Shown piece by piece: positions 2,394 through 16,886 of a stretch of 64,000 bases of DNA. A program made the position numbers and the translations under genes. Source of the stretch: Micromonosporaceae bacterium. GTDB taxonomy: Bacteria; Actinomycetota; Actinomycetes; Mycobacteriales; Micromonosporaceae. The stretch covers positions 10,488 through 74,487 of the forward strand of contig VSCG01000001.1 of the NCBI GenBank assembly GCA_047459115.1. Direction: 5' to 3'. Within the stretch, counting starts at the first letter, position 1; the number at the start of each line of letters is the position of its first letter. Below the pieces are notes generated by a model. That model had not been told where the DNA came from, searched no databases, and saw nothing but the letters and a program-made list of their open reading frames with translations.

Positions 2394-3464
2394 TTGAGGG
2401 AAGCTACGACGAACCACACCGACGGGCGGTCCACCGGGCGCAGCCGGGTTGCCTTCATCACCGGCATCACCGGCCAGGACGGCTCCTACCTGGCCGAACT
2501 GCTGCTGTCCAAGGGGTACGAGGTGCACGGCATCATCCGCCGTGCCTCCATGTTCAACACGCACCGGCTCGACGGCGTCTACCAGGACCCGCACGAGAAT
2601 CACCGCCGACTGTTCCTGCACTACGGCGACATCACCGACTCGAGCTGCCTGGTCAACCTGATCCGGGACATCCAGCCCGACGAGGTCTACCACCTCGCCG
2701 CGCAGAGCCACGTGATGGTGAGCTTCGAGATCCCCGAGTACACCGGCCAGGCCACCGCGCTGGGCACGATCCGGTTGCTGGAGGCGATCCGGGCCTCAGG
2801 CATAGACACCCGGTTCTACCAGGCGTCCACCTCCGAGTTGTACGGCGCCATGCCGCCTCCCCAGAACGAGCAGACGCCATTCCATCCGCGCAGCCCGTAC
2901 GGCGTCGCCAAGCTCTACGCGTACTGGTCGACGGTCAACTACCGCACCGCGTATGGCATGCACTGCTCGAACGGGATCCTGTTCAACCACGAGTCGGAGC
3001 GCCGCGGCGAGACGTTCGTGACCCGCAAGATCACCCGGGCGGTGGCGCGGATCAAGGCCGGCCTGCAGGACACGCTCTACCTGGGCAACCTCGACGCGGT
3101 GCGCGACTGGGGCTACGCCCCGGAGTACGTCGAGGGGATGTGGCTGATGCTCCAGCAGGACGTCCCGGACGACTACGTGCTGGCCACCGGCGAGGCCGCG
3201 ACCGTGCGGGAGTTCTGCGAGGCGTCGTTCGCGCACGCGGACCTGGACTGGGAGCGCTACGTGCGCATCGACCCACGCTACGTGCGACCGGCCGAGGTGG
3301 ACCGGCTGATCGGTGACGCGACCAAGGCCCGCGAGAAGCTCGGCTGGGTGCCGAAGACGACCTGGCGCGAGGTGGCCCGGATCATGGTGGAGGCCGACAT
3401 CGCGCAGCTGGACGACGAGCTGTCCGGTCGGGCCGTGCGCATCGACCGTGAGCGCTACGGCTAG
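2394..3464 (+). CDS. gmd: GDP-mannose 4,6-dehydratase
   Basis: [32 protein letters not shown]...[10 protein letters not shown]...[12 protein letters not shown]...[18 protein letters not shown]. The track ORF starts at 2298, but codons 2298-2393 use rare A/T-ending codons, so I prefer TTG 2394. The start is uncertain. Confidence 0.9.
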
Positions 3465-4690
3465 CGCCGTGCGGCCGCGAGTGCGGCCACGTCGCGGTAG
3501 ACCGCGAGGAGCGCGGCCAGTCCGGCCGCCGGGCTGAACCACTGTTCGTACCGCCGCCGCGCCACCTCCACGAGGGTGGCGGCCTCGGCCCGGGCCCGCG
3601 GCAGCGCCGCGGCGAGCGCGTCCGACCCAGGGGCCACCACCCAGCCGGCTGCCTGCCCTGCTTGGCCGGCTGCCGTCCGTGGTTGGCCGGCTGCCTCTCC
3701 TGGTTGGTCGGCGCCGATCAGCCACGGCAAGCCACCGTTCGCGGTGGCGAGCACCGGCCGGCCGTTCGCCAGCGCCTCGATGAGCGCCATTGGGCACACC
3801 TCCGGGCAGGTGGACGGCACGACGACCACGGCCGCCCGGCGGATCACCCCGCTGACCTGCGCCGGAGCCAACCGGCCCAGGTACGCCACGTCGCCGCGCG
3901 CCGCCGCGGCCGCCTCGACCGCACCGCGCAGCGGCCCGTCGCCGGCGATCGACAGCCGTCCCAGCGACCCGTCCGGATGCCGCGACCACGCGTCGAGCAG
4001 CAGCCCCACGCCCTTCTCCGGCGACAGCCGCCCGACGAACAGGAACCCGTCCCCGGGTACGGTGTGCAGTCCCGGATCCGGCGCCACGTTCGGCCTGACC
4101 ACCACCCGGTCGTCGGGCACGCCGAGCGCGGACAGGTGCCTTCCAAGGGTCGGGTTCAGCGCGAGAAACCGGTCCACCCGGCGCCACGTGCCGCGGTGCG
4201 CCGCCAGCGCCGTGGCCATCACCACGCTCTGCGCGCGCGATCCGCGGTAGCACCCGTGCCGCACGGCCGGCACCGCCCACGCCCGGCCCACGCACTCCTG
4301 ACACTCCCGCCCCTGCCGGTAGAACACCCCGGACACACAGACGTGCCGGAAGTTGTGGACGGTCTGCACCACCGGTACCCCGTGCGCGTGCGCGGTGCGC
4401 ACCACCCACGGCGAGAGCAGCGGATACGGATTGTGCAGGTGTACGACGTCAGGCCGTTCGGCGGCGAGCAGCGCGGCCAGATCGCGCTGCGCGCGGGGGG
4501 CGTAGATCGGGGACACGGGCAGCAGCGCCCGCTGGGCGGGCGGCAGTGCCGGGATCTCGTCCGAGCTGCGCAGGAACGGCACCACCGCCACCCCGGCCTC
4601 GGCCAGCATCCGCATCTCGGCGTCCACGACGGTGTTCTCTCCCGACGGCTGCGCCGAGGAGTATCTGTTGTGCGCTACGAGGACCTTCAC
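3461..4690 (-). CDS. Glycosyltransferase family 4 (GT-B fold)
   Basis: 409 aa. [22 protein letters not shown] at the N-terminus; [13 protein letters not shown]...[27 protein letters not shown] is a GT4 EX7E-like region. Its stop overlaps the gmd stop within a CTAG. Confidence 0.85.
3645..3707. repeat. In-frame tandem repeat, 3 x 21 bp, inside the GT4 gene
   Basis: CCGGCTGCCTGCCCTGCTTGG / CCGGCTGCCGTCCGTGGTTGG / CCGGCTGCCTCTCCTGGTTGG. On the minus strand it encodes the heptads [21 protein letters not shown]. Confidence 0.85.
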
Positions 4691-4762: not shown

Positions 4763-5731
4763 TTGACCTCGTCCACGTACCGCCATGACCTGCCCCGCGA
4801 CGCGACCGTCTACATCGCCGGCCACCACGGCCTGGTCGGCTCGGCGATCTGGCGGCACTTCCAGGCACAGGGCTTCACGAACCTGGTCGGTCGCCGCTCG
4901 GCCGAACTCGACCTGCGCGACCCGGAGGCGACGAGGGCATTCTTCGCCGAGGTCCGCCCGGCGTACGTCATCGACGCCGCGGCCAGGGTCGGCGGAATCC
5001 TCGCCAACGCCACCTACCCGGCGGAGTTTCTCTCCGACAACCTACGCATCCAGGTCAACCTGCTCGACGCGGCCCGGGAGTTCGGGGTGGTCCGCCTGCT
5101 CTTCCTCGGCTCCAGCTGCATCTACCCCAAGCACGCGCCGCAGCCGATCAGCGAGGACGCACTGCTCACCGGCCCGCTGGAGCCCACCAACGAGGCGTAC
5201 GCGATCGCGAAGATCGCCGGTGTGCTGCACGTGCAGGCCCTGCGCCGCCAGTACGGCTGCTCGTTCATCTCCGCGATGCCGACGAACCTCTACGGCCCGG
5301 GCGACAACTTCGACCCGGAGACATCGCACGTCCTGCCGGCGCTGATCCGGCGCATGCACGAGGCGGTGGAGCGCGGTGACGATACGTTCGTCGTATGGGG
5401 GTCCGGCACGCCGCGCCGGGAGTTCCTGCACACCGACGACCTGGCGGCGGCGTGCCTGACGCTGCTGGAGCGGTACGACGCGGAAGCGCCGGTCAACATC
5501 GGCACCGGGACGGACGTGACCATCCGCGAACTGGCCACGATGGTCGCCGAGGTGGTCGGGTTCCACGGCGACCTGGTCTTCGACACCACGAAGCCCGACG
5601 GCACGCCCCGCAAGCTGCTCGACGTGTCGCGGATCCGTGCGCTCGGCTGGGCGCCGCGAATCGAGCTGCGCGAGGGCATCCGGCAGACCTACGCCTGGTT
5701 CCTGGCCAAGCGTGCCACGGCCCGGGTATGA
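4763..5731 (+). CDS. fcl: GDP-L-fucose synthase (GDP-4-keto-6-deoxy-D-mannose 3,5-epimerase/4-reductase)
   Basis: VYIAGHHGLVGSAI...VIDAAARVGGILAN...FLGSSCIYPK...EPTNEAYAIAKIAG...SAMPTNLYGPGDNF. The TTG start is taken from the track. Confidence 0.9.
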   Translation: MTSSTYRHDLPRDATVYIAGHHGLVGSAIWRHFQAQGFTNLVGRRSAELDLRDPEATRAFFAEVRPAYVIDAAARVGGILANATYPAEFLSDNLRIQVNLLDAAREFGVVRLLFLGSSCIYPKHAPQPISEDALLTGPLEPTNEAYAIAKIAGVLHVQALRRQYGCSFISAMPTNLYGPGDNFDPETSHVLPALIRRMHEAVERGDDTFVVWGSGTPRREFLHTDDLAAACLTLLERYDAEAPVNIGTGTDVTIRELATMVAEVVGFHGDLVFDTTKPDGTPRKLLDVSRIRALGWAPRIELREGIRQTYAWFLAKRATARV

Positions 5732-5764
5732 GCCGGACCACGTGTCCGATTCCTGACCATCGCT

Positions 5765-6634
5765 ATGCCGGGTAAGCTCTGCGCCGGTATGGCGGAGGAC
5801 AGCCGCGTCAATGTGGGCAGTTTCGTCTGCAGTGGTGTGCGCATCGATGACCTGGGCCCGGAGGAAGCGGTAACGCTCCTCCGGCGCTCGCGCTACGGCG
5901 TGGCCCGTAGAGTCCACTTATGCAATGCGTACACCCTTTCGCTCGCGGTCCGGGACGCGAACTACCGGCGGATGCTCAACGAGAGCGACCTGAACTTCGC
6001 CGACGGGCACTATGTGGCGCTCGTGGGTCGACTTCGGGGCCAAGCTGCGATGCGGGCGCGGGTGTATGGCCCGGACCTGATGTTGAACACAATGGATCGC
6101 GGTCGGGCAGAGCGCCTGCGCCACTACCTCTACGGAGCGACGCCCGAGACAGTGATCAGGCTCGCGGAGCGGCTGCGGGAGAGATTCCCGGGTGTGGAGA
6201 TCGTCTCGGTGGAGTCCCCGCCGTTCCGCCCGCTCGACTTGGCGGAGGAGAAGGAACTCCTCGAACGGGTGGAGGCCGTGCGACCAGACATCTTCTGGGT
6301 CGGGCTCGGCACTCCTCGCCAGGACCTCTTCGTCGCCACCTACGCCGAGCGCCTCGGCTGCACGGTGGTCCCCGTCGGTGCGGCATTCGACTTCCATGCA
6401 GGCACCAAGCGGATCGCCCCGAAGATCGTCCAGCGAATGGGCCTGGAGTGGCTCTTCCGCCTGCTGACCGAGCCGATACGGCTGTGGCGGCGCTACTTGT
6501 TCGGAATTCCGATCTTTCTTATGGGCGTGATTGCAGATCACTTCTGGAAGTGGCGCCACTCCACCGGCGAGGCGGCGAACGGGGCATCTGGCTGTGCTCG
6601 TCGAGGTGCCGATCAGGGAAGGCTCATGCCCTAG
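5765..6634 (+). CDS. WecB/TagA/CpsF family glycosyltransferase (GT26)
   Basis: LCNAYTLSLA...NFADGHYVA...YGPDLM...YLYGATPE...PPFRPL...DIFWVGLGTPRQDLF...VGAAFDFHAGTKRIAPKIVQRMGLEWLFRLLTEP. The start may instead be ATG 5789. Confidence 0.85.
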   Translation: MPGKLCAGMAEDSRVNVGSFVCSGVRIDDLGPEEAVTLLRRSRYGVARRVHLCNAYTLSLAVRDANYRRMLNESDLNFADGHYVALVGRLRGQAAMRARVYGPDLMLNTMDRGRAERLRHYLYGATPETVIRLAERLRERFPGVEIVSVESPPFRPLDLAEEKELLERVEAVRPDIFWVGLGTPRQDLFVATYAERLGCTVVPVGAAFDFHAGTKRIAPKIVQRMGLEWLFRLLTEPIRLWRRYLFGIPIFLMGVIADHFWKWRHSTGEAANGASGCARRGADQGRLMP

Positions 6635-6757
6635 CGGCGGAGTCGTCCTTATCCCGTATATGTCTGATCTCGCTGAACCTCGGCCCGGCGGTGCGATGGT
6701 GCCCCGTCGGTCAGCTGCCGGCCCGACTCTCCCAGTAGAGCGCGATCGGGAGTTTGC

Positions 6758-8917
6758 GTGACCGTCGCCGTAGTGTTCGTGACACAGCCGTCCCCAAGGG
6801 CGCCCGAGCATGCCGCAGCCATTCTGCCCCTGTCCGAGACGACGGTAATCGGGCGGTTGCATGAGCAACTTGTGGCATTTGGGACCAGGGCCATAACGAC
6901 CGTGGCTCGGCCAGAGTTGGTGCCGCATCTGCGCCGGAGGGGTCTTGACGTGATCGAGTCGACGAGCCCGGTCACAGATATGACAATTGCTGCGCGCATT
7001 ATTCGTAGCTCGCTCGATCACGTCGTCATCTGTTCTGGCAACGTCGTAGCGCACCAGGCTGCCCTCGCTTCCCTGACATCCGCGGCAATGCGGCGAAGCG
7101 TTGCCATGGTGGGCGCAATAGATGCGCGTTGTCAGCAGACATCGATACGTTGTGAGCGCGGACGGGTGGTATCCGTGGCGACCGAGTATCATTCGGTCAG
7201 CGGAGCCAATGCGAGCTTTCGCGGGGTCCTCGTGGTCGCCCGTCACCAGGCGCAGACATTTTCGGAAGCCTGCTACCAGCTGGTAAATACGGGTCCGGCC
7301 GATGTGATTTCTGGATGGGGCGGGGCGGTGGAGTTGATGCTCCTGGCCGCCGTTCGTTCCGGAATCCCGATCGGTGCACACGATGTGCGGGGGCTATTTT
7401 GTGCCCGGGTCGCCACAGAGGAGGACGTCATTGTCGCGGCTGAGCGACTCCACGCCGTTGATGAGCGCGCGGCGTTGCTCAAGGCAGCCGTCAAACCACA
7501 CGACGACCTCTTCGCCACTTTCGGCGTAAGCCCCTTCTCACCGCAGGTGGTGCGATGGGCGGCACGATGGCGGCTCACGCCGACTCAGGTGACCTGGTTT
7601 TCTGTGGTGCTTGCGGTGGGCGCAGCGCTGGCCTTCGCGTTAGGGGATCGAGAGTTCAGGATTGCTGGCGCGATCCTCCTGTACCTGAGCTTCGTACTTG
7701 ATTGTGTGGACGGTCAACTGGCACGGTTCACCGGCCGCTTTTCCTCCTACGGTGGCTGGCTCGACGCCATTTCCGATCGGGTCAAGGAATATATCGTCTA
7801 TGCAGGACTCGCCATCGGAGCAGCCCATACTGGCACTGCTGATGTATGGCCGATCGCGCTGGCAGCAATTGCTCTGCAGACTGCTCGTCATATGACCGAT
7901 ACCTGGTACGGCGCGATTCAGGATGAGCATATTGACCGCAGAACACGGGCCCCACTTGATGTGTCGGCGGATGGATTCGCAGCAACGCCGCAACCGCCCG
8001 GGCGCTCATTCAGCCTGCGCCTAGGCTCAGCCCTCGGTTACCTCTCCGCGCGCGCACATGACAATCGGCAATCGGTGCTGTACTGGGTCAAGCGTACCCT
8101 TCCCTTTCCGATAGGCGAGAGATGGCTGCTGATCGGCGTAACGGCAGCGGTGTTCGACGCGCGAATCACATTCGTCTGCTTGCTATCCGGCGCGGCCATC
8201 GCCGCGATCTATACCCTGACGGGCCGGATACTACGCGCACGAATCATTAGGGCGTCCGCACTTGGACGTCACGGAACCTTTCTGCATCGCGACTCCGGTG
8301 CCGTCGATCGGTTCTTGGGATGGATCGGACAGGGAAGGCTGCGGCCGCTTCCAATTGCGCTCATAGCGGCTCTGCCGACAGTCGCGCTCTTGAGCTTAGA
8401 CTCGCTGGGGCTGGCCGCACGACAGCTCACCGCCACGGATGACCGGCTGATCGTGACGGCCGGACTGATCTTGTTAGGGGCTGGGCTGGGAGCTGGTCAT
8501 CCCCACAACGGTCCACTGGACTGGTTGGTGCCTGCGGCGCTCCGCGGCGCTGAATATCTCTTCATTCTGCTCGTTGCCCGTAACGAGGGTGTGTCTCCAC
8601 TGTTGGCATTCGCCTTGATCGGCGCGGTCACCGTCTTCCATTACGACCTAGCCGCCCGGCACGACACTCGGTCGTCACCGTTACCGGTCCGACGGATCGG
8701 GTTCGGCTGGGACGTGCGTGTCCTTTTCATGACGCTTGCAGCAGGCCTGGGGGCGGGAACTTTGCTATTCGCGAGCCTTCTGAGTTACCTCTCGGTGGTG
8801 TTTATCGTGGCTGCCTTATTCGGTGTATACAGAAGCCGCCGGGATTTGATTGGGCCGGTCCCACCTCGGCAGCATATTCGACACAATGAGACAGAAGCGG
8901 CGATTGTCGAGCGATGA
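6758..8917 (+). CDS. Three-part membrane protein: nucleotidyltransferase-like N-domain without a recognisable signature, CDP-alcohol phosphotransferase domain, and a C-terminal polytopic region
   Basis: 719 aa. Residues about 1-200 look like an NTP-transferase fold but lack a G-x-G-x-R-L loop (VFVTQPSPRAPEH instead). The middle has LDCVDGQLARFTGRFSSYGGWLDAISDRVKE, the CDP-OH-PT signature. The C-terminal ~300 aa are multi-TM; I recall such tails being catalogued as DUF5941, which needs checking. Its stop overlaps the next start (ATGA at 8914-8917). Confidence 0.75.
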   Translation: MTVAVVFVTQPSPRAPEHAAAILPLSETTVIGRLHEQLVAFGTRAITTVARPELVPHLRRRGLDVIESTSPVTDMTIAARIIRSSLDHVVICSGNVVAHQAALASLTSAAMRRSVAMVGAIDARCQQTSIRCERGRVVSVATEYHSVSGANASFRGVLVVARHQAQTFSEACYQLVNTGPADVISGWGGAVELMLLAAVRSGIPIGAHDVRGLFCARVATEEDVIVAAERLHAVDERAALLKAAVKPHDDLFATFGVSPFSPQVVRWAARWRLTPTQVTWFSVVLAVGAALAFALGDREFRIAGAILLYLSFVLDCVDGQLARFTGRFSSYGGWLDAISDRVKEYIVYAGLAIGAAHTGTADVWPIALAAIALQTARHMTDTWYGAIQDEHIDRRTRAPLDVSADGFAATPQPPGRSFSLRLGSALGYLSARAHDNRQSVLYWVKRTLPFPIGERWLLIGVTAAVFDARITFVCLLSGAAIAAIYTLTGRILRARIIRASALGRHGTFLHRDSGAVDRFLGWIGQGRLRPLPIALIAALPTVALLSLDSLGLAARQLTATDDRLIVTAGLILLGAGLGAGHPHNGPLDWLVPAALRGAEYLFILLVARNEGVSPLLAFALIGAVTVFHYDLAARHDTRSSPLPVRRIGFGWDVRVLFMTLAAGLGAGTLLFASLLSYLSVVFIVAALFGVYRSRRDLIGPVPPRQHIRHNETEAAIVER

Positions 8918-10665
8918 AGACGAGAATTTCGAACCGATCCGAAGCATTGGTCCTCGCTATCTCCGCAATCAGCGCCATCGCGCTCGCCGGTGCTATTGCG
9001 GTCGTACTGTTGGGCAGCCCGAAACCGAGACTCGTGCCAGGCCAGCAAGGCCCATCATCACCAGTGGGCCAACCAATCACGGTGATCAGCTGGAACATCT
9101 GCAGCGACGTCAGAACCTGGTGTCCCTCCGGGGGAGAGCCGGAGGTACTCGCCGAGGCCATAACTGAGACCATTCGCACGCACGAACCTGACGCTGTGTT
9201 TCTGCAGGAGGTGTGCTCAGCGGTAGTAACGGATCTGCGGAGACGCCTGGGTCCCGAATGGATGGTGCACTTTCGCAAGACCAGGGAGCTCGTGTATGTC
9301 GGGCAGCAGGAGGTGATCAGGACGACATCGTGTTCCGAACCGCTAGGTGATATTGGAATCGCGATCGGACACACCTCATCGTTGGCTCGGTCTGGGTCGG
9401 CGTCCATCGATCAAGCGAGACCCGTGATACGTTCGCATCCCCTGCCATCTCCGACTCCTACCAATAAAGGGCGAGCCCACCAGCGGCTTGCCATGTGTGT
9501 TCAACTGAATGCACCCGGCCTGCAGTTTTGCAACGCGCATCTACCAACGCGGGGAGAGGATCCGTCCGGACAACTGCGGGCCGCCGGCATAGAGATCCTC
9601 GCCGAAGAGATCAGCTTCGGGCAGCGGGTGGGTCTATTGACCATTGCTGGGGGTGATCTGAATACTCGACCCACAGAAACCGTGAATGGTACCCCGATAC
9701 TTGCTCGTTTGTACGACACAAGCACCGAGTGCGATTCAGGCGACGACCCGCAGCCCACATTTAAGGGCGAAAAGATCGACTATATATTTGCAGGTTGGGG
9801 ATCGGCCAACATGGAATGTAGGATCGAGTCCTCCACTCGTTCTGATCACGACATTCTCCTTGCCCGGATCCAGTTGATGCAAGGCATGGGTGCTCGTGCC
9901 CTTCGTGATGGCTTTCCCCTACTGCTGGAGAAGGCATATGCACGCGCCGACCGGCAGCGCCCGAATGCTCTTCTGCTGACAACTGCCCTTCAGCGTGGCT
10001 TCAACAACGTCGAAGTCGACGTGCAGCCGCCTACGGAGGCCGGTAGCTTCCCACTCGGCACCAATAAACCTGATCCCTGGGGCCGTACACTTGAGGATTA
10101 CTATCTCTATCCTCTGCAGCAATGGGTGAACGCACAGCAAGGCAAGATTCACCCTGAGTCGCAAGGTCCGTTCACTCTCATGGTTGATATCAGGAGCAGT
10201 CGGCTGACCGAGAATGTGTACCGGTCTCTTGAACGGAATCTGACACCCTACAAGCCAATGCTTTCGCGGGTTGAGGAGGGCAAGGTCGTCCCGGGGCCAA
10301 TCCGTGTGGTGGTGCCCAACTCGGCTGCACTCGTCAGACATCTGGCGGACAGATCCAGCTCATTGTTCTTTGTGGACGTACGTGCGCCGTGGCGAGCAGG
10401 AGAGGCCGCCATGCCTCCTTCGGTCTTTGTTGCGATGGCCAGCGTGAGGCTGAGTGACGTGACAGGGGAGCAGATGGACCTGACCAGGGTGGCGGGGGAG
10501 GTGAAGCGAGCGCATGACCTTGGGTACGCGATTCGCTTCTACGGGTATGAGCACCTCGGAGACTCTCCGGAGATCAGGCGGATCTGGGCTGCACTAGAGG
10601 CGGCCGACGCGGACTTCATCACCACGGACGATCTAGATGCGTTGGTGCGCGCCCTTGCTCGCTGA
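8914..10665 (+). CDS. Membrane-anchored endonuclease/exonuclease/phosphatase (EEP) domain fused to a PI-PLC-like (Ca-dependent PLC-C1-like) domain
   Basis: 583 aa with an N-terminal TM anchor (LVLAISAISAIALAGAIAVVLL). EEP-like features are ITVISWNIC...DAVFLQEV...CNAHL...GGDLNT...DYIF...SDHDILLARI. The C-terminal ~260 aa resemble my recollection of bacterial PI-PLC-C1 proteins (RTLEDYYLYPL, FTLMVDIRS, PYKPML, IRFYGYE, ITTDDLDAL). The expected HxHNDY motif reads KAYARAD. Confidence 0.6.
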   Translation: MKTRISNRSEALVLAISAISAIALAGAIAVVLLGSPKPRLVPGQQGPSSPVGQPITVISWNICSDVRTWCPSGGEPEVLAEAITETIRTHEPDAVFLQEVCSAVVTDLRRRLGPEWMVHFRKTRELVYVGQQEVIRTTSCSEPLGDIGIAIGHTSSLARSGSASIDQARPVIRSHPLPSPTPTNKGRAHQRLAMCVQLNAPGLQFCNAHLPTRGEDPSGQLRAAGIEILAEEISFGQRVGLLTIAGGDLNTRPTETVNGTPILARLYDTSTECDSGDDPQPTFKGEKIDYIFAGWGSANMECRIESSTRSDHDILLARIQLMQGMGARALRDGFPLLLEKAYARADRQRPNALLLTTALQRGFNNVEVDVQPPTEAGSFPLGTNKPDPWGRTLEDYYLYPLQQWVNAQQGKIHPESQGPFTLMVDIRSSRLTENVYRSLERNLTPYKPMLSRVEEGKVVPGPIRVVVPNSAALVRHLADRSSSLFFVDVRAPWRAGEAAMPPSVFVAMASVRLSDVTGEQMDLTRVAGEVKRAHDLGYAIRFYGYEHLGDSPEIRRIWAALEAADADFITTDDLDALVRALAR

Positions 10666-10968
10666 CGCGCGTTGGCTGCACTGTGTGCCTTGTGGACTCG
10701 GAGTGGCAGATGACAAGGTCGTTGAGAGCCGGCTCAAGAGGGACAATTCCTGATCAGGGCACCCGCACAGGACCGCTCGCAGGGCTGAGCAATGGCGCCT
10801 GCCCTGAAGGGTGAGGCTGCGGTATCTTCCTGTCGGGATTCAACGGAGGGTATACATACCTGTGACTGGGTCAGCTGCGGCGCGTGAGTCGTTGACGGGC
10901 AGTGTCGTACCGATGGCGAGAGCCGCGCTAATGCCGGTGAGGCGCACCGTAACGGTTGGCGGGAGGCC

Positions 10969-12714
10969 TTGAGGATGCTCTTCTTGCGGCTATATCGGGC
11001 GCTGCCGAGGCGATTTCGAACCAGGCTGCTCGGAATGATTCCGAGTTCGCGACTGTTGTGGCTCGTGCGCCGGCTAGTGCCACTTCAGACGCAACGCCAG
11101 ATGCACGACTCCAGCGGTCGGCGGGTCGTTCGTGATCGAGGGCAGGTCGTTCCGGCCTCCGTGTCTGATACGGCCACTCCGTTCGCCGTAAGGCAGGCGA
11201 ATCTCGACGCCGTCGTGCAGGTGTTGGACAGCGCGGGTATACCCTATTTCCGGATTCGCCCTGACAGTAGCTTGAGGACGGCTATCGCGGTTCCGTTGCA
11301 GAACCAGGCCAGGGTCGCAGAGGAGATCCATCGCTCTTTGAGCGACTTCACGGTTCGGTGGGTGTCCCCTAGGTCGAGACCAATAAAGGAGAATGGCGGT
11401 CATTCGGCAGTTCTTCAGGTATTTCACGCCGTTACCTCGCAAACGGGGTCACTGGTGCTTGGGAGCAAGTACGCTTGCGAGATTGAGTTCTGGCTAGAGG
11501 AGAAAGGAAAACTTATCGCTCCTCGTCGGAACGCCGTCGGCGGCGTCGTTTCTGCGAAGTATGAGCCAGTCATGGCCGACGAGCATGTGTTTAGCCGCCT
11601 TGCAGGCCGAAACGCCAGTCGACAGTATCAGACCCGAGAGGAGTTTGCTTGCCTCGGAATCGACATGGTCGACTTCCCCATCGATGCCGTCTACACATGG
11701 GTCGATGGCTCCGATCCCGAATGGCAAAATAGGAAGAATGCCGCGTTGGCGACTCAGGGTGACGGTGAGTTGAGCGAACTTGCTGCCAACTCATCTAGGT
11801 ATCTGAATCGCGATGAATTGCGCTATTCGCTTCGATCATTGGTATGTTTCGCTCCGTGGATTCGGCACATCTACCTTGTGACGGATGACCAGATTCCCCC
11901 GTGGTTGGATCCTCACCACCCGATGATAACGGTAATCCGCCACCGAGAGATCTTTGGTGAAACCGGTGTCTTGCCTACGTTCAACTCTCACGCGATCGAA
12001 TCAAGGCTGCACCGTATTCGCGGTCTTTCGGAACATTTCCTATATGTGAACGACGACATGTTCTTCGGCCGGATGGTCTATCCGACGACATTCTTTCACC
12101 CGAACGGCATCGCCAAGTTCTTCTTGTCACGGGCGCAAATGGGTGCCGGCCCGGCATCTATCGACGATGCGCCCGTAGATGCCGCCGCCAAGAACAACCG
12201 TACGATTATTCAGGATCGGTACGGCCGGTTCATCAGCCGGAAGATGAAACACGTGCCGTATCCTCTCCGCAAGAGCGTGTTGGAGGAGATCGATCAGGCG
12301 CTGCATGCCCAGGTCTTGGCGACCGCCTCCCACCAGTTCCGGCACCCTGGAGATCTCTCTATCCCCTCGTCCCTCCATCACTACTGGGCTCTCATGACTG
12401 GTCGCTCGGTGCCGGGTTCGATCAGGTACGCCTACGCAGATCTCGGACACCCGTCGACCCCGTTGAGGCTTCGGGAGTTGCTCGCCAAGAGAAGGTGGGA
12501 TGTATTTTGCCTCAACGATACAGATTCGGGCGACGTGAGCCATGCGGAGCAGATGGCAATGATGTCGGAGTTTCTGCCCGCGTACTTCCCGTTCCGAGCG
12601 CCATTTGAACTGCCAGACGACGTAGCGGCGGAGCGCGCCCGCCTCGGCGCTACCCAACTGGCTAAGGAACTACTAGATCTTCCTACCGGTTTAGCTGGAG
12701 CGGGGCGGAATTAG
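10969..12714 (+). CDS. Stealth family protein (putative hexose-1-phosphoryltransferase)
   Basis: Stealth conserved regions are present: CR1 DAVYTWVDGSDPEW, CR2 NRDELRYSLRSL..FAPWIRHIYLVTDDQIPPWL, CR3 LPTFNSHAIESRLHRIRGLSEHFLYVNDDMFFG, CR4 region HQFRHP. The start is TTG 10969 or ATG 10975. Confidence 0.85.
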   Translation: MRMLFLRLYRALPRRFRTRLLGMIPSSRLLWLVRRLVPLQTQRQMHDSSGRRVVRDRGQVVPASVSDTATPFAVRQANLDAVVQVLDSAGIPYFRIRPDSSLRTAIAVPLQNQARVAEEIHRSLSDFTVRWVSPRSRPIKENGGHSAVLQVFHAVTSQTGSLVLGSKYACEIEFWLEEKGKLIAPRRNAVGGVVSAKYEPVMADEHVFSRLAGRNASRQYQTREEFACLGIDMVDFPIDAVYTWVDGSDPEWQNRKNAALATQGDGELSELAANSSRYLNRDELRYSLRSLVCFAPWIRHIYLVTDDQIPPWLDPHHPMITVIRHREIFGETGVLPTFNSHAIESRLHRIRGLSEHFLYVNDDMFFGRMVYPTTFFHPNGIAKFFLSRAQMGAGPASIDDAPVDAAAKNNRTIIQDRYGRFISRKMKHVPYPLRKSVLEEIDQALHAQVLATASHQFRHPGDLSIPSSLHHYWALMTGRSVPGSIRYAYADLGHPSTPLRLRELLAKRRWDVFCLNDTDSGDVSHAEQMAMMSEFLPAYFPFRAPFELPDDVAAERARLGATQLAKELLDLPTGLAGAGRN

Positions 12715-12721
12715 ACCGCCC

Positions 12722-13705
12722 GTGCGGCGCTCCAAGAAGAGGAAGGGCCTAACCGTGCCGCTCGTCATCAAGATGCCCCGTAATCAGTCCGCGCTCGCTG
12801 CCGTCGGCCCGTACCCTCGTGCTCTCAACGTTCTCGATCGCAAACAGACGGCCGTGCAACGACAGTTGCGCCGTGCGGGCCTTGCCGGTTACGAGCCGTC
12901 GACTCAGGCGACTCTACTAGCGATCATGCAGCTCGCACCTCGGGGTTCAGCGTTCTTCGACATCGGTGCGCACATCGGTCTGTACTCGGCAATGGTTTCT
13001 GCCATCTTCGGTTCTCGCGGGCATCGTGTATATGCCTTCGAACCGAGCCCAGAAACCGCTCAGATTTGCCGGAAGCTGCGAGACATCAATGGCTTGGACT
13101 TCGGTGTTGTCGAGAAAGCGCTTGGCCGTGAACCAAGTGAGGCCGTGCTTCACCTCTCTGCGAAAGCCGAGACATCAAACTCCCTTAACCCGACTTTTCG
13201 CAGTTCTATCGGGACTGTTACTGTTCCGGTTTCCACTGTCGATCTTTTCACGGCGACTCACCATGTCGACCCGTGGCTTATGAAAATCGACGTTGAGACA
13301 TATGAGCCAATGGTGTTGGCGGGATCGCTGCAAGCTATCGAACGTGCTCGACCATGGGTTATCTGTGAGATACTGGACAGCGTTGATCATGAACTCTTGG
13401 CTCCGGTTCTCAGCGACCTTGCCGACCTTGGCTATACGTTTTATCGCATCGATGATCGACACCCTTGGTCGAGCAGTACAGTTGACGGGTACCGCTATCG
13501 TATATCAGGGAGCAGCAGAGACTGGCTATTCGCCCCTACGGACCTAAGTAGCGATTTTTTCAAGACCGTGCGCGCTTGGTCGGATGCGATCGCCAAGTGT
13601 GGCCCGGAGACCAATCTGCTGATCCCTGGGGGTGTGCCATTCCCAGAAGGTTGGAACGCTCCTTACCCACGGCGTAGATGGTGGCATCTCGGCCGGCGAG
13701 ACTGA
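12722..13705 (+). CDS. FkbM family methyltransferase
   Basis: FFDIGAHIGLYS...VYAFEPSPET...KALGREPSEAVLHLS...SNSL...LMKIDVETYEPMVLAG. The start is uncertain; an internal ATG lies near 12768. Confidence 0.8.
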   Translation: MRRSKKRKGLTVPLVIKMPRNQSALAAVGPYPRALNVLDRKQTAVQRQLRRAGLAGYEPSTQATLLAIMQLAPRGSAFFDIGAHIGLYSAMVSAIFGSRGHRVYAFEPSPETAQICRKLRDINGLDFGVVEKALGREPSEAVLHLSAKAETSNSLNPTFRSSIGTVTVPVSTVDLFTATHHVDPWLMKIDVETYEPMVLAGSLQAIERARPWVICEILDSVDHELLAPVLSDLADLGYTFYRIDDRHPWSSSTVDGYRYRISGSSRDWLFAPTDLSSDFFKTVRAWSDAIAKCGPETNLLIPGGVPFPEGWNAPYPRRRWWHLGRRD

Positions 13706-13907
13706 CCTTTAGTATGTCCAGGAACGACTTTCAACCTAACGGCACTCCAAGTTCTGGACTTAGAGATCAGTGAACCACTGGATGAGCGGTGGGCGGCGAT
13801 ATGGGAAAGCGGCAGACGGCATTGCGATGAAGGAGCTCCGGCGGTTGTCTGATCAATGAAGCGGCTGTAGCGTCCGCTTCCTTGGTCGGTACGCCAGTTG
13901 GCTCGGT

Positions 13908-14648
13908 GTGAGGTGCTTGATGATTGGGTTGGTACTCGCTGCTGGGGCGGGAAGCCGGCTGCGGCCGCACACTGACGCGCTGCCCAAGACCCTCCTACCG
14001 GTCGCCGGCGAGCTGACCATCCTCGACATCATCCTGCGCAACCTCGCCGCCGTGGGTCTGGCCGACGTCGCGGTCGTGGTCGGATACGCCGCGGCGGCCG
14101 TACAGGCTCGTGTGCCCGAACTCGAGCGGCGGCACGGCGTGCGGCTGAGCCTGCTCCACAACGACCGCGCCGACTGGAACAACGCCTACTCGCTCTGGCT
14201 CGCGCGGCACGCATTCGCCGAGGGCGCGCTGCTGGTCAACGGGGACACCGTCCACCCGCTCGACGTGGAGAAGACCCTGCTCGCCGAGCGCGGCCCCGGG
14301 GTGCTGATCGCGGTCGACGGGCTCAAGACGTTGACCGACGAGGCGATGAAGGTGCGCCTGGACCCCTCCGGCCGACTGCTGCGCATCACCAAGCAGATGC
14401 CGGTGGCCGACGCGCACGGGGAGTACATCGGCGCCGCGCTCATCGAGGCACGTGCGGCGCGCGACCTCGCCGCGGCCCTCGAGGCGACCTGGCGGCGCGA
14501 TCCGCAGCTGTACTACGAGGACGGTTTCCAGCTCTTCGCCGACCGCACCGGCGACCTGCGGGCCGCCCGGCTCGGAGCGTTCGAATGGGTGGAGGTCGAC
14601 GACCCTGCCGACCTCGCCCGGGCCCGGGACATCGCATGCCGCTACTAG
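13908..14648 (+). CDS. NTP-transferase domain protein (LicC/phospho-alcohol cytidylyltransferase-like)
   Basis: MIGLVLAAGAGSRLRPHTDALPKTLLPV...VVVGY...NNAYSLWLA...LLVNGDT...YIGAALI. The likely true start is ATG 13920. Confidence 0.8.
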   Translation: MRCLMIGLVLAAGAGSRLRPHTDALPKTLLPVAGELTILDIILRNLAAVGLADVAVVVGYAAAAVQARVPELERRHGVRLSLLHNDRADWNNAYSLWLARHAFAEGALLVNGDTVHPLDVEKTLLAERGPGVLIAVDGLKTLTDEAMKVRLDPSGRLLRITKQMPVADAHGEYIGAALIEARAARDLAAALEATWRRDPQLYYEDGFQLFADRTGDLRAARLGAFEWVEVDDPADLARARDIACRY

Positions 14649-15697
14649 CCCGCGCGGTGCTCGCCCCGCTCGCGGTCGAGGTGCGCCGCGGCGCGCTGGG
14701 CAGCCTCCGCGACATCCTCACCGACCGGCGCATCTCAGCCGGCGGCGACGTCGCGGTGGTCGTTGGCCCCGGCCTAGGTAACGAGGTCAGCGAACTGCTG
14801 CGGGGCCGGCTGGACCGCGCGGAGATTCTCACGGTCACCGGTGGCACGTTCGCCGCCGCCGCCGAACTCGGCGCCAAGCTGCGCGCCCGGGCGTACGACG
14901 CTGTCGTCGGCATCGGCGGCGGCCGCACCATCGACACCGTCAAGTACGCGGCGACCCAGCAGGGCCTGCCGATGGTCTCCGTCGCCACCAGCCTGGCGCA
15001 CGACGGGATCGCATCCCCGGTGAGCGTGCTGGACCGGGAAGGGGTGAGCGTGTCGTACGGCGTGCACACCCCGCTCGCTGTGGTGGTCGACCTGGACTTC
15101 GTGCGCCGCAGCCCGGCATGGCAGACCCGCTCGGGCGTCGGCGACGCGCTCAGCAACCTGTCGGCGACGGCGGACTGGCAGCTCGCGCACGAGGTGCGTG
15201 GAGAGCCGCTCGACGGGCTGGCCCTGGCGTTGGCGCGTACGGGCGCCGAGGCCGTGCTCTCGCACCCCGGCGGGATCGGCGACGAGGACTTCCTCGCCAC
15301 GCTGGCGAATGCGCTCGTGCTCGGCGGAGTGGCGATGGCCGTGGCCGGCTCCAGCCTGCCGTGCAGCGGCGGCTGCCACGAGATCGCCCACGCCGTCACC
15401 AAGCTCTATCCGGGCGCCGGCACCCACGGCCAGCAGGTCGGGCTCGGGGCGCTGTTCTGCACGTACCTGCGCGACGACGCCGACCACTTCGTCCGGCTCG
15501 CCGCCGCCCTGCGCCGCCACGGGCTGCCCCGCACCCCGGCCGAGCTGGGGCTGACCGATGAGCAGTTCGTCGAGGCGGTGACGCACGCGCCCGACACCCG
15601 CCCGGGGCGGTACACGATCCTCGAGCACCTCGCGCTGTCCCGCGACCAGATCGCCGGTAAGCTCGCCGGTTTCCTTCGTGCCGTCGCCCGTTCCTGA
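14636..15697 (+). CDS. Iron-containing alcohol dehydrogenase family protein, sn-glycerol-1-phosphate dehydrogenase-like (AraM/EgsA-type)
   Basis: DAVVGIGGGRTIDTVKYAA...PMVSVATSLAHDGIASPVSVL...GVGDALSN...CHEIAHAV. ATG 14636 overlaps the upstream stop by 13 nt, so I prefer it over the track start 14585. Confidence 0.75.
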   Translation: MPLLARAVLAPLAVEVRRGALGSLRDILTDRRISAGGDVAVVVGPGLGNEVSELLRGRLDRAEILTVTGGTFAAAAELGAKLRARAYDAVVGIGGGRTIDTVKYAATQQGLPMVSVATSLAHDGIASPVSVLDREGVSVSYGVHTPLAVVVDLDFVRRSPAWQTRSGVGDALSNLSATADWQLAHEVRGEPLDGLALALARTGAEAVLSHPGGIGDEDFLATLANALVLGGVAMAVAGSSLPCSGGCHEIAHAVTKLYPGAGTHGQQVGLGALFCTYLRDDADHFVRLAAALRRHGLPRTPAELGLTDEQFVEAVTHAPDTRPGRYTILEHLALSRDQIAGKLAGFLRAVARS

Positions 15698-16265: not shown

Positions 16266-16886
16266 TCAGCCGGGGAGTGCGGCGCCGGCGGCGAGGGCGG
16301 TGGTGGTCAGTGTGGCCACGCGCCGCAGATATGCGTCGGGCAGGGGGCCACGGGCGACGGCCAGCCGCCAGTAGACCGGGCCGACGACGAGGTCCAGGGC
16401 GAGTTCCGGGTCGGTGCCGGATGGGATTTCGCCGCGTTTGACCGCGCGATCGATCAGCAGATTCCCGATGTCGCGCTGGGCATCGCGCAGCGCCTGCTGG
16501 AGGGTCTGCCCGATCTGCGGGTTACGCGCGGCTTCGGCGAGGAGGTCGGGCACGATCTGGGACGCCAGCGGGTGGCGCAGCGCGCGGGCGACGAGGCCCA
16601 GCACCATCTCGAGATCGCCGCGCAGGCTGCCCGTGTCGGGCAGCGGGAGGAGACTCTTCCCGGCGATGTCGGAGACGATATCCAGCACGATCTCCAGTTT
16701 GGAGCTCCACCGGCGGTAGATGGCCGTCTTGCCGACGCCTGCCCGGCGTGCCACCGCCTCGATCGACAGCCGCCCGTAACCCACGGCCGCGAGCTCCGCG
16801 AGCACGGCGTTGCGGATGGCGGCCGTCACCCCCCCGCGCAGCACCGCCGCACCGGCCGGGGCGCGCCGCCTCTCGACTGTGGACAC
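16266..16886 (-). CDS. TetR/AcrR family transcriptional regulator
   Basis: LSIEAVARRAGVGKTAIYRRWSSKLEIVLD is the canonical TetR HTH. Confidence 0.9.
   Translation of the reverse strand: MSTVERRRAPAGAAVLRGGVTAAIRNAVLAELAAVGYGRLSIEAVARRAGVGKTAIYRRWSSKLEIVLDIVSDIAGKSLLPLPDTGSLRGDLEMVLGLVARALRHPLASQIVPDLLAEAARNPQIGQTLQQALRDAQRDIGNLLIDRAVKRGEIPSGTDPELALDLVVGPVYWRLAVARGPLPDAYLRRVATLTTTALAAGAALPG

Follow-up and report, generated by a model that had tools for sequence, protein, structure and literature searches.

A low-GC block with serotype-like variability in a putative wall-glycopolymer locus of a Micromonosporaceae bacterium

Organisation of the locus

The window, by which we mean the whole 64-kb stretch of DNA that was analysed, comes from an uncultured actinomycete of soil and contains a wall-glycopolymer-type locus whose genes are listed in Table 1; housekeeping genes surround this locus within the window. 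The gene calls of flanks and cassette were checked with Pfam and NCBIfam, and the identities given to the flanking genes on both sides by a first-pass annotation of this DNA were borne out. The closest relative available for comparison is the JGI contig Ga0310831_100133 (L086+L088), in the following rel1. On the left side, the 258-aa CDP-alcohol phosphotransferase has an intact family motif (ending 8Gx3Dx3D), shares 82% of its amino acids with rel1 and has a GC content at third codon positions (GC3) of 0.90. The gmd gene (GC3 0.92) lies inside an 85.7%-identical stretch common to the window and rel1, and the GT4 protein is 89% identical to its rel1 counterpart. The final gene of native composition on this side is fcl (GC3 0.93, 94% amino acid identity to rel1), whose product is identical to NCBI MFS8477369.1, 'MAG: GDP-L-fucose synthase [Micromonosporaceae bacterium]'.

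The conserved right flank begins with the nucleotidyltransferase (NTP) gene (GC3 0.90), in which homology to the relatives restarts at codon 4-5. The following Fe-ADH_2 protein matches NCBIfam PRK00843 (G1P dehydrogenase) with 245 bits, a score under the equivalog cut-off. The true start of its gene is probably near 14640 because the orthologues have 353 aa, and it was paired with the NTP gene every time in the 80 genome_contigs loci retrieved with the NTP protein. The TetR protein is identical to NCBI MFS8477378.1, and the TagGH-like permease and ATPase as well as the LCP ligase are all conserved in rel1.

Table 1 Features of the locus (positions refer to the window).
Feature	Position	Strand	Family matches and remarks
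Small CDP-alcohol phosphotransferase, 258 aa	1505..2281	+	Pfam CDP-OH_P_transf; conserved left flank
gmd, GDP-mannose 4,6-dehydratase	2298..3464	+	Pfam GDP_Man_Dehyd, 474 bits; conserved left flank
GT4 glycosyltransferase	3461..4690	-	Pfam Glyco_trans_1_4 and Glyco_trans_4_4; conserved left flank
fcl, GDP-L-fucose synthase	4763..5731	+	Pfam Epimerase and GDP_Man_Dehyd
GT26 (WecG/TagA-type) glycosyltransferase	5765..6634	+	Pfam Glyco_tran_WecG, 171 bits
Variable block	6555..13920	+	No nucleotide homology to the block of rel1 at the same site (blastn, junction alignments); GC 0.55-0.63
CDP-OH-PT/DUF5941 membrane protein, 719 aa	6758..8917	+	Pfam CDP-OH_P_transf and DUF5941
EEP protein, 583 aa	8914..10665	+	Pfam Exo_endo_phos
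Stealth-family hexose-1-phosphate transferase, 581 aa	10969..12714	+	Pfam Stealth CR1-CR4
FkbM-family methyltransferase	12722..13705	+	Pfam Methyltransf_21 and TIGR01444
Nucleotidyltransferase (NTP), probably cytidylyltransferase	13908..14648	+	Pfam NTP_transferase; opens conserved right flank
Fe-ADH_2 protein, G1P-dehydrogenase-like	14585..15697 (longest ORF)	+	Pfam Fe-ADH_2
TetR-family regulator	16266..16886	-	Pfam TetR_N and TetR_C_11; conserved right flank
TagG/TagH-like ABC-2 permease (16978-17889) and ATPase (17861-18679)	16978..18679	+	Pfam ABC2_membrane and ABC_tran
LCP (LytR-CpsA-Psr) glycopolymer ligase	18748..19944	+	Pfam LytR_cpsA_psr, 159 bits

Base composition and codon usage

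The segment 5732-13907, between fcl and the NTP gene, has a GC content of 0.600 compared with 0.727 in the remaining window. The five lowest-GC windows of 8 kb all overlap this cassette, and in bins of 2 kb GC is 0.58-0.63 over 6001-14000 and at least 0.688 in all others. An earlier count of 48-62% GC for single 60-nt lines of the cassette, against more than 70% in the flanks, came close to the computed values of 0.43-0.73 (10th-90th percentile 0.52-0.67) versus 0.65-0.80 elsewhere. GC3 is 0.80 for GT26, 0.66 for CDP-OH-PT/DUF5941, 0.64 for EEP, 0.67 for Stealth and 0.595, the cassette minimum, for FkbM, whereas the 31 other genes of the window have 0.928±0.027 with a minimum of 0.875 (z of the cassette genes -4.6 to -12.2). 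The tetranucleotide correlation with the remaining window falls to 0.79 for 8001-12000 and is at least 0.976 for bins off the cassette. The region 5765-13705 can thus be distinguished from its flanks by all three measures proposed in the first-pass annotation (GC, GC3 of 0.60-0.80 and tetranucleotides). The TTA leucine codons at 7640 and 8474, described there as rare in such genomes, are real and in frame; TTA accounts for 7/2504 cassette codons versus 2/13583 codons of the other genes, an approximately 19-fold enrichment.

Both edges of the anomaly are sharp: in-frame GC3 steps from 0.93 at the end of fcl to 0.77 at the start of GT26, and from 0.62 at the end of FkbM to 0.85-0.98 in the NTP gene. 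In a contig of a metagenome-assembled genome, so abrupt a change at both edges could also reflect an assembly chimera, or contamination fused to a Micromonosporaceae contig. We attach hardly any probability to this explanation. The left junction (fcl/GT26/cassette) is spanned by contig L096, which comes from another sample and matches the window with 100% identity over 5586-7225. L092, likewise from another sample, matches with 99.9% identity over 10487-21106, a stretch that starts within the EEP gene and crosses the right junction. Since each junction is found again in an independent metagenome assembly, the cassette is not a chimera. Its open reading frames are also intact and closely packed, the stop of the DUF5941 gene overlapping the start of the EEP gene by 4 nt (8914-8917).

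Alternative blocks at the same site in relatives

The relatives compared are metagenome contigs, the lineage relations of which are taken from local identity alone. The gene order of the flanks is the same in the window and in rel1, with nucleotide identities of 85.7% over 2-6559, 89.9% over 13921-15697 and 87-90% over 13921-24485. According to junction alignments, homology stops at ~6555, late in GT26, and restarts at ~13920, early in the NTP gene. Between GT26 and the NTP gene rel1 has 16.2 kb and the window 7.4 kb, and the two stretches are non-homologous by blastn; the block of rel1 encodes four GT2s, an NDP-sugar dehydrogenase, an MT24 methyltransferase and a lyase-family protein. Contig L093 is 94-95% identical to rel1 as far as the dehydrogenase gene and then carries another low-GC distal block. 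In the more distant L099 (fcl-GT26-NTP) and L102 (GT26-NTP-FeADH) the cassette is absent, GC is flat at 0.71 and the end of GT26 shares 4 nt with the beginning of the NTP gene; this stop/start overlap marks an empty site. The first-pass annotation had left it to such an alignment to tell whether fcl and the NTP gene are adjacent or separated by other cassettes: rel1 and L093 have other cassettes, and in L099 GT26 alone lies between fcl and the NTP gene; none of rel1, L093, L099 and L102 has the same five genes here. The lineages with differing blocks are ~86-90% identical (window and rel1, which probably represent different species) or 94-95% identical (rel1 and L093). For the lineage of the window, no genome of >95% ANI was found to carry another block, and the near-identical contigs L092 and L096 keep the same cassette.

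Low GC is a property of the blocks at the GT26/NTP site and not of the gene families: GC3 is 0.64-0.85 in the block of rel1, lowest in mid-block, and 0.64-0.65 in that of L093, whereas Stealth and DUF5941 homologues encoded elsewhere have GC3 values of 0.87-0.98.

The cassette had been described as comprising five genes between fcl and the NTP gene. This holds for the part from ~6555 to 13920, which is non-homologous to rel1, but not for GT26, which is present in rel1, L093, L099 and L102 and belongs to the conserved genes of the locus rather than to the cassette-specific content. The allele in the window is nevertheless divergent and of low GC3 (about 0.80-0.82 versus 0.92, 0.92 and 0.89 in relatives). 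At third codon positions its identity to rel1 is 0.60, the minimum among 13 usable genes (gmd was left out), the other 12 of which are at 0.71-0.82. The allele probably served as the left arm for recombination or else moved together with the cassette; given such an outlier, a left edge at 5732 can be defended in terms of composition and recombination.

Conserved syntenic flanks, alternative or absent blocks and an atypical composition are what is found at a variable, serotype-like region of a polysaccharide locus. We consider it likely that the region represents the variable centre of a chromosomal wall-glycopolymer locus of the ABC-transporter-dependent type and is exchanged at a hot spot between GT26 and the NTP gene. 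The conserved scaffold consists of the small CDP-alcohol phosphotransferase, gmd, GT4, fcl and the TagA-like GT26 on the left and of the cytidylyltransferase-like NTP, the G1P-dehydrogenase-like, TetR, TagGH-like exporter and LCP genes on the right. The hot spot would lie exactly between GT26 and NTP, which form a coupled pair in some relatives and enclose unrelated low-GC gene sets in others. As to the mechanism, we infer homologous recombination in the arms: the left crossover would fall in GT26 or where fcl meets GT26, the right one at the 5' end of the NTP gene; site-specific mobility machinery would play no part in block swapping.

A classical integrative island or mobile element (phage, ICE or transposon), with mobility genes decayed or located outside the block, would also produce a sharp-edged anomaly in composition and codon usage. 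We regard such an origin as very unlikely. All five of the five open reading frames are biosynthetic, and Pfam detects no integrase, recombinase or transposase among them or their neighbours. There are no tRNA or tmRNA genes in the 64-kb window, the only direct or inverted repeats at the boundaries are imperfect matches of 14-26 nt, which is chance size, and the intergenic gaps of the cassette hold no remnants of other genes or pseudogenes. The absence of integrase, transposase, tRNA and boundary repeats had already been noticed in the first reading of the sequence. Moreover, the relatives hold different biosynthetic blocks at the identical site, the block junctions fall at the ends of conserved genes and the neighbours are housekeeping genes. 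The swapped block or empty site seen in relatives agrees with the initial comparison to capsule and O-antigen loci rather than to an integrative island.

More deserving of discussion, although still improbable in our view, is an old, vertically inherited block that has been lost or replaced elsewhere and that, lacking a homologous partner, escapes GC-biased gene conversion and codon selection and drifts to AT. The cassette proteins have their nearest homologues exclusively in high-GC Micromonosporaceae (37-60% identity, with one metagenomic Stealth protein at 76%), so that a low-GC donor is not evident, and no donor was identified among the best homologues. The amino acid composition is shifted to residues with AT-rich codons (FYMINK fraction 0.143 versus 0.094±0.014 for the DUF5941 protein and 0.194 versus 0.162±0.019 for Stealth), which argues for long residence at lower GC. 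In the window and rel1 alike, GC3 has its minimum in mid-block and rises to both conserved arms, and L081, a divergent relative of the cassette, is low-GC too. Against this explanation stand the abruptness of both compositional edges, which lie within tens of bases, and the wholly non-homologous blocks between 86-90% identical flanks. Together with the coupled GT26-NTP pair of two relatives, the latter show that replacements happened, whatever keeps GC low. Vertical inheritance accounts for the composition but not for the polymorphism, and is compatible with exchange of cassettes from a family-wide pool.

Comparison with known surface-polymer loci

The variation in gene content at this site is real and of a familiar kind, as in capsule and O-antigen serotype regions. 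Region 2 of the group 2/3 kps loci of E. coli and the rfb loci of Enterobacteriaceae have a low-GC central block with sub-blocks of differing GC and usually unidentified donors, and new forms arise when the arms or shared genes recombine (PMC10433991; PMC3715488). The present locus likewise has a variable biosynthetic centre, with genes for ABC-transporter export in its conserved arms, and the fall of GC nearer to the specific genes known from Salmonella rml resembles the gradient in the window and rel1. It differs in belonging to a monoderm actinomycete of high GC, and its product is presumably ligated to peptidoglycan by LCP and not linked to lipid A or lipid-anchored. Another difference is that the hot spot separates two genes which other lineages keep translationally coupled. 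Furthermore, the block of the window lacks a conventional glycosyltransferase, Wzx and Wzy, and the nearest homologues of its genes are found in the same high-GC family and not in low-GC taxa.

The locus also resembles the wall teichoic acid (WTA) systems of Firmicutes in its presumed product, a wall-anchored anionic glycopolymer, and in three canonical Tag/Tar components identified by Pfam, the TagA-type GT26, the TagGH ABC exporter and the LCP ligase. Firmicutes have alternative WTA gene sets, S. aureus ST395 for instance making a poly-GroP-GalNAc WTA instead of the usual RboP WTA, and the variable region of the cwps loci in lactococci and streptococci is comparable (PMC9574508). In such systems the genes that specify the polymer are replaced from lineage to lineage, which alters surface chemistry and the range of phages and horizontal gene transfer (PMC3903184). 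Among the genes of 1-24 kb, however, we found no Glyphos_transf-family match that would represent a TagB/TagF/TarL-type CDP-glycerol/ribitol phosphotransferase, and no TagD/TarI-type cytidylyltransferase; an initiating TagO/WecA is not among the annotated genes of the window and may be encoded elsewhere in the genome. Activation of the polyol phosphate apparently depends on G1P-dehydrogenase-like and NTP_transferase-type enzymes instead, its transfer on a membrane protein of the CDP-alcohol phosphatidyltransferase family, and a Stealth enzyme is present in addition. Judged by its gene families, the locus would work like a WTA pathway, yet is not a canonical member.

Cassette proteins and proposed product

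The 719-aa protein is tripartite: its N-terminus resembles a degenerate NTP transferase and is joined to a CDP-alcohol phosphotransferase domain and to DUF5941. The N-terminus gives a faint match to NTP_transf_3, and PF12804 is annotated on the homologues P0150, P0153 and P0159. The CDP-alcohol phosphatidyltransferase motif D(x)2DG(x)2AR(x)8G(x)3D(x)3D is present at residue 315 as DCVDGQLARFTGRFSSYGGWLDAISD and reads DCVDGQLARx8Gx3Dx3D. The best homologues (37-46% identity) are all from Micromonosporaceae or Stackebrandtia; in Streptosporangiales, DUF5941 homologues sit immediately upstream of the NTP-FeADH genes. The bifunctional IPCT/DIPPS of hyperthermophiles, a cytidylyltransferase joined to a CDP-alcohol phosphotransferase, has a similar order, in which the phosphotransferase with its DxxDGxxARx8Gx3Dx3D motif comes after an NTP-transferase-like N-terminus. 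However, the match to the NCBIfam IPCT/DIPPS and PIP synthases is weak (48 bits versus an equivalog cut-off of 580), no GxGxR nucleotide-binding loop can be recognised in the N-terminus, the C-terminal DUF5941 membrane domain is extra, and a separate canonical NTP-transferase gene lies beside the cassette.

The Stealth protein contains all four conserved regions (CR1 55.6, CR2 152.5, CR3 69.7 and CR4 62.0 bits) in order within residues 236-556 and above the gathering scores, as do the capsule polymerases of N. meningitidis A/X (CsaB/CsxA) and the mammalian GlcNAc-1-phosphotransferase. It differs from these by an actinobacterial-type N-terminal extension of ~230 aa and by being encoded in a wall-polymer locus and not in a Gram-negative capsule locus. 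It is 76% identical to the metagenomic P0002 on L081 and 50-60% identical to Micromonospora and Actinoplanes paralogues. The FkbM protein is 45% identical to the N-terminus of an FkbM-GT61 fusion, likewise on L081.

The AF2 model of the EEP protein is confident (pLDDT 89.4) and has a helix at 8-34 as the N-terminal membrane anchor, then the EEP domain and then a beta/alpha domain, and a Foldseek search with the 583-aa model returned EEP enzymes. A fusion of EEP and PLC halves had been postulated. Exo_endo_phos and a GDPD_2-like C-terminus, the homologues of which match GDPD_2, are indeed present, but the PLC half lacks three conserved histidines: the GDPD_2 motif AHAHNDY...ExDV...LxVxH is changed to AYARAD...EVDV...FPLGT in the window protein and in P0121, while 40 homologues retain the three family histidines. 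The fold of this half is probably retained in view of the modelled beta/alpha pattern with pLDDT above 90, but its catalytic activity is doubtful because of the three replacements.

No conventional GT-A/GT-B glycosyltransferase is encoded in the variable block of the window, and the cassette (Stealth, CDP-OH-PT-DUF5941, EEP with its degenerate GDPD-like domain and FkbM) is predicted to provide only phosphoryl-transfer chemistry. CDP-alcohol phosphotransferases are not known to act as wall-polymer polymerases. Stealth proteins are hexose-1-phosphate transferases that form sugar-1-phosphate diester linkages (PMC5974469), and a module of CDP-alcohol phosphotransferase, nucleotidyltransferase, araM and tagGH is syntenic in Streptomyces (PMC13118837). 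We infer the substrates of the enzymes and the structure of the polymer as follows. The Stealth enzyme would use a UDP-sugar to form sugar-1-phosphate diester bonds. The CDP-alcohol phosphotransferase-DUF5941 protein would move a polyol phosphate, most likely glycerol phosphate, from a CDP-alcohol supplied by the products of the flanking G1P-dehydrogenase and cytidylyltransferase genes, and FkbM may O-methylate a residue, possibly as a chain-terminating cap. The cassette thus probably specifies a teichoic-acid-like poly(glycosyl-phosphate / polyol-phosphate) chain, a phosphodiester polymer presumably built on a linkage unit made by GT26, exported via TagGH and joined to peptidoglycan by LCP. 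As a guess, the membrane-anchored, extracytoplasmic EEP protein would trim or process phosphodiester bonds after export, and its dead GDPD-like domain may act as a binding module.

A further, tentative reading is that in related Micromonosporaceae one hot spot accepts cassettes for either of two anionic wall polymers of opposite chemistry, the low GC resulting from long recombination isolation of a family-internal pool and not from low-GC donors. The phosphate-rich, teichoic-like option would be the cassette of the window, in which Stealth and CDP-alcohol phosphotransferase-DUF5941 would make the phosphodiester polymer. The phosphate-free, teichuronic-like option would be the cassette of rel1, with four GT2s and a UDP-ManNAc-dehydrogenase-like enzyme for a uronic-acid polymer. 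Bacillus switches between teichoic and teichuronic polymers by regulation; if true, this reading would describe a counterpart at the level of the genotype, and phosphate availability and phage pressure could maintain both cassettes.

Full-length EEP/GDPD-like fusions are very rare, with about 5 found among 1.84 billion representatives, and the fusion of an EEP domain to a dead GDPD domain may represent a new kind of wall-polymer-processing protein.

Composition of the low-GC block

The five genes between fcl and the NTP gene (GT26, a CDP-alcohol phosphotransferase with a DUF5941 domain, an EEP-fold protein, Stealth and FkbM) differ clearly from their flanks in sliding GC, in GC3 and in tetranucleotide usage. 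In sliding windows GC is 0.70-0.78 before the block, only 0.53-0.63 across ~5.8-13.9 kb, and 0.72-0.74 again thereafter; the interval has a GC of 0.600 against 0.727 in the remaining window, and when 8-kb windows are ranked by GC the lowest five all overlap it. As a reference for GC3 we used 31 genes elsewhere in the window, picked by the frame signature GC3>GC1>GC2. Their GC3 is 0.928±0.027 (minimum 0.875), whereas the five cassette genes, in order, have values of 0.80, 0.66, 0.64, 0.67 and 0.595 (z = -4.6 to -12.2). Both edges are abrupt in the in-frame sliding GC3: fcl ends at 0.93 and GT26 starts at 0.77, and FkbM ends at 0.62 and is followed by values of 0.85-0.98 in the NTP gene. The tetranucleotide correlation of the cassette centre with the rest of the window drops to 0.79, and TTA codons make up 7/2504 codons in the cassette vs 2/13583 in the other genes. 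The first-pass annotation had described a low-GC block inside a high-GC locus, and the GC and GC3 values bear this out; the two TTA leucine codons it quoted are genuine and in frame, and every one of its gene assignments was reproduced with Pfam and NCBIfam.

The source MAG is annotated 'Micromonosporaceae bacterium' (proteins MFS8477369, fcl, to MFS8477378, TetR), and the rest of the window consists of ordinary chromosomal housekeeping genes. An assembly chimera is excluded as the cause of the junctions, since both recur in assemblies from other samples, the left one in contig L096 and the right one in contig L092. One nucleotide is missing in L092 from a G run just ahead of the Stealth stop, which creates a 909-aa Stealth-FkbM ORF; this could be a true variant or a homopolymer assembly error.

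Signatures of mobility were likewise searched for. ARAGORN found no tRNA in the window, repeats bracketing the block were only matches of chance size, the two intergenic gaps held no gene remnants, whether of other alleles or of mobility genes, and a promoter and terminator scan together with Rfam gave no signal above background. Along with the Pfam results this agrees with the earlier statement that integrase, transposase, tRNA and boundary repeats are lacking. With neither integrase nor tRNA nor direct repeats, the cassette is not a classical genomic island.

Positions of the features discussed, in window coordinates
Feature	Window position	Counterpart or remark
Low-GC interval, five genes	5732-13907	
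Left flank aligned to rel1	2-6559	85.7% nucleotide identity
Part not homologous to rel1	~6555 to ~13920	from 25 codons before GT26 stop to codon 4-5 of NTP
Right flank aligned to rel1	from 13921 on	87-90% nucleotide identity
Left junction in L096	5586-7225	100% identity
Right junction in L092	10487-21106	99.9% identity
GDPD_2/PLC-like half of EEP protein	9900-10665	
G-run deletion in L092	~12700-12714	L092 ~2215-2230
NTP segment matched in L081	14086-14193	L081 5468-5652; 71% nt identity, tblastn
Overlap of longest Fe-ADH_2 ORF with NTP	14585-14648	64 nt
Segment between FeADH and TetR	15698-16265	CopG-like ORF 15873-16241 (+)
Site of extra gene in rel1	24485-24610	~125 bp; L088 1320-2237 in rel1

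Alternative occupants of the site in relatives

Exact-sequence look-ups of the EEP protein, of fcl and of entry P0001 found no encoding contigs on record. A scan of GTDB species representatives with the NTP protein had 74% identity as its closest match and thus no close relative. The Micromonosporaceae genomes from that scan have a different gene order (NTP-FeADH-small CDP-OH-PT-...-GT4), so that it could not settle whether fcl and NTP are adjacent; in the 80 loci fetched with the NTP protein, NTP and Fe-ADH_2 genes are always paired. Relatives were therefore reached through cluster members of fcl and TetR with ≥90% identity, which led to contigs of other metagenomes, and empty sites came to light when metagenomes were scanned with GT26 and a tblastn panel was then run.

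The closest relative (rel1, JGI contig Ga0310831_100133) has the same order as the window on the left (small CDP-OH-PT, gmd, GT4, fcl, GT26) and on the right (NTP, FeADH, TetR, ABC-2, ATPase, LCP). Between these flanks it carries an unrelated block of 16.2 kb in place of the 7.4 kb of the window, encoding a 606-aa protein without assignment, four GT2 proteins, an NDP-sugar dehydrogenase nearest to UDP-ManNAc dehydrogenases, a Methyltransf_24 protein, two small ORFs and an alginate-lyase-family protein. The metagenome contig L093 is 94-95% identical to rel1 through the end of the dehydrogenase gene and then continues with a different low-GC gene set; window and rel1, at 85.7-90% identity, are probably different species, and the contigs nearly identical to the window have its own cassette. 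Two more distant relatives have an empty site, fcl-GT26-NTP in L099 and GT26-NTP-FeADH in L102, where GT26 and NTP overlap at their stop and start codons (GTGA or ATGA), with a uniform GC of 0.71. The hot spot thus has at least four states: it is empty, or it carries a block of the window, the rel1 or the L093 type. Conserved flanks with alternative or absent blocks support the proposed likeness to the variable centre of capsule and O-antigen loci.

A further contig, L081, holds a divergent cassette of the window type (identity 60% for EEP and 76% for Stealth); other genes follow it, and its GC is low as well. Short NTP-like fragments downstream of the Stealth and MT24 genes in L081 suggest a decayed NTP gene beside this cassette too.

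Edges of the block and the GT26 allele

The original five-gene cassette stands as a compositional and recombinational unit, but not as a unit of gene content. Homology to rel1 spans most of GT26, so this is by content a scaffold gene conserved in relatives, and the non-homologous part begins only near its 3' end. In composition, however, the GT26 of the window stands apart, with a GC3 of 0.80-0.82 against 0.92 in rel1, 0.92 in L093 and 0.89 in L102. Its third-codon-position identity to rel1 is 0.60 vs 0.71-0.82 for 12 other shared genes, a comparison that leaves out gmd, the row of which was read in the wrong frame. This is most simply explained by a left crossover at or before the fcl/GT26 boundary, which would have brought in a foreign GT26 allele together with the block. 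With its edges refined in this way, the earlier observation is confirmed and its interpretation supported.

Origin of the low GC

Low GC is not inherent to these gene families, because homologues of Stealth and of the DUF5941 protein elsewhere in actinomycetes have GC3 values of 0.87-0.98. It is a property of whatever occupies the hot spot: GC3 in the rel1 block runs from left to right through 0.89, 0.82, 0.81, 0.64, 0.66, 0.72, 0.70, 0.73, 0.79 and 0.85, and that of the L093 block is 0.64-0.65. A centre-low gradient of the same kind has been reported for Salmonella O-antigen clusters (PMC3715488). Import from a phylum of low GC is not supported, as the nearest homologues are all of high GC; the best for Stealth are Micromonospora, Actinoplanes and Krasilnikovia proteins (50-60% identity), and the best for the DUF5941 protein come from Micromonosporaceae or Stackebrandtia (37-46% identity). 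We also rejected the loci of the 50-60% identical Stealth homologues (L082-L085) as the source of the cassette; they are unrelated paralogous loci of native GC. Residues with AT-rich codons are enriched in the cassette proteins relative to their homologues (+1.7 to +3.5 sd), and this shift in amino acids indicates that the lower GC is old. It may stem from import from an unsampled relative of moderately lower GC, or from long residence in a cassette pool without homologous partners, where the genes would have escaped GC-biased conversion and codon selection. The lack of a low-GC donor, with all homologues of high GC, is relevant to the long-standing question why genes specific to polysaccharides are AT-rich.

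Cassette proteins and the putative polymer

No GT-A or GT-B glycosyltransferase is encoded in the variable block. The Stealth protein has all four conserved regions of its family, the members of which are hexose-1-phosphate transferases that join sugars via phosphodiesters (PMC5974469). The 719-aa membrane protein combines an intact CDP-alcohol phosphotransferase motif with a C-terminal DUF5941 and a degenerate NTP-transferase-like N-terminus; a literature search for DUF5941 under that name returned nothing. The NTP-protein scan placed CDP-alcohol phosphotransferases of the DUF5941 type directly upstream of NTP-FeADH throughout Streptosporangiales, and Streptomyces has this module in synteny with tagGH (PMC13118837). 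From these associations, the most likely substrate of the 719-aa protein is a CDP-polyol, probably CDP-glycerol, supplied by the NTP and G1P-dehydrogenase-like genes that follow the cassette. As called by NCBI, Stealth (380 aa) and the DUF5941 protein (580 aa) are too short to include the N-termini conserved in their homologues. The fourth variable-block protein, FkbM, is a methyltransferase.

The 583-aa protein has an N-terminal transmembrane helix, an EEP fold modelled with confidence (pLDDT 89.4) and a C-terminal beta/alpha domain. A Foldseek search with the model retrieved generic EEP enzymes only (Nocturnin, TDP2, CNOT6L), with no clue to the substrate, and a PDB sequence search gave no match. 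Free-standing homologues of the C-terminal domain are GDPD_2-type phosphodiesterases. In the window protein AYARAD...FPLGT replaces AHAHNDY...LxVxH, so that all three histidines are lost, likewise in P0121, its only close homologue; this half is probably a binding module and not an enzyme. While the halves are common separately, HMMER found ~5 full-length fusions among 1.84 billion representatives, two of which (P0272, P0273) have ricin-lectin tails and keep the histidines; a word-index search with the fusion returned one homologue only.

Judged by its gene families, the cassette would specify a teichoic-acid-like poly(glycosyl-phosphate / polyol-phosphate). The polymer would be assembled on a linkage unit made by GT26; the TagGH-like transporter would export it and LCP would ligate it, with the EEP protein acting on the outer side of the membrane. 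The rel1 block, with its GT2 proteins and sugar dehydrogenase and no phosphotransferase, looks like one for a uronic-acid polymer. This difference is the basis for a teichoic-versus-teichuronic reading of the hot spot, and we put forward as a tentative, rather doubtful possibility that alternative cassettes specify phosphate-rich teichoic-like and phosphate-free teichuronic-like wall polymers.

Relation to known systems

The locus works like the E. coli group 2/3 capsule loci with their region 2 and like O-antigen clusters, in which conserved arms with ABC export genes enclose a low-GC, serotype-specific centre that is exchanged when the arms or shared genes recombine (PMC10433991, PMC3715488). 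Of the defining features of such a variable centre, conserved flanks, alternative or absent gene sets at one site and atypical composition are present here; a difference in polymer structure or serology would follow from the differing gene content, and the variation is seen between lineages of 94-95% identity or less. The lineage-specific replacement of staphylococcal wall teichoic acid is also similar (PMC3903184). TagA, TagGH and LCP are present but a TagB/F/D-type enzyme is absent at the locus, which by gene content is not a canonical Tag/Tar pathway. Its predicted repertoire is unusual, with only phosphotransferases and a rare fusion of EEP and dead GDPD. The G1P-dehydrogenase-like enzyme, the cytidylyltransferase, the CDP-alcohol phosphotransferase-DUF5941 protein, Stealth and the EEP protein are a candidate non-Tag route to phosphodiester wall polymers.

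How phages adsorb, how cells interact and how phosphate is budgeted all depend on surface glycopolymers. Micromonosporaceae are major antibiotic producers and abundant in soil, and to our knowledge hardly anything is known of the genetics of their surface glycopolymers. The locus is a well-delimited hot spot of glycopolymer diversity in this little-studied family of very high GC, and the logic of O-antigen and capsule loci, conserved arms with a swappable low-GC centre, is also at work in an actinomycete of 72% GC. Geneticists of surface polysaccharides will find this unsurprising; it offers a useful entry to the wall-polymer diversity of Micromonosporaceae and to the low-GC puzzle. As the hot spot is a single intergenic or overlapping junction, it can be used for mining cassette diversity.

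Further variation around the locus

The scaffold genes (NTP, FeADH, small CDP-OH-PT, GT4, gmd, fcl, GT26) occur in several orders and orientations in Micromonosporaceae and metagenomic relatives (L001-L008, L037; L103-L108; L115-L116), which indicates that the locus is prone to rearrangement beyond the single hot spot. Between FeADH and TetR lies a small ribbon-helix-helix (CopG-like) ORF that is present in L092 and absent in rel1, which has a 12-bp gap only. Another small indel polymorphism close by is an extra 1.2-kb gene of the AbiEi_4/DUF559 family in rel1. Finally, the longest Fe-ADH_2 ORF overlaps the NTP gene; the orthologues have 353 aa, so the true start is probably ~17 codons downstream.
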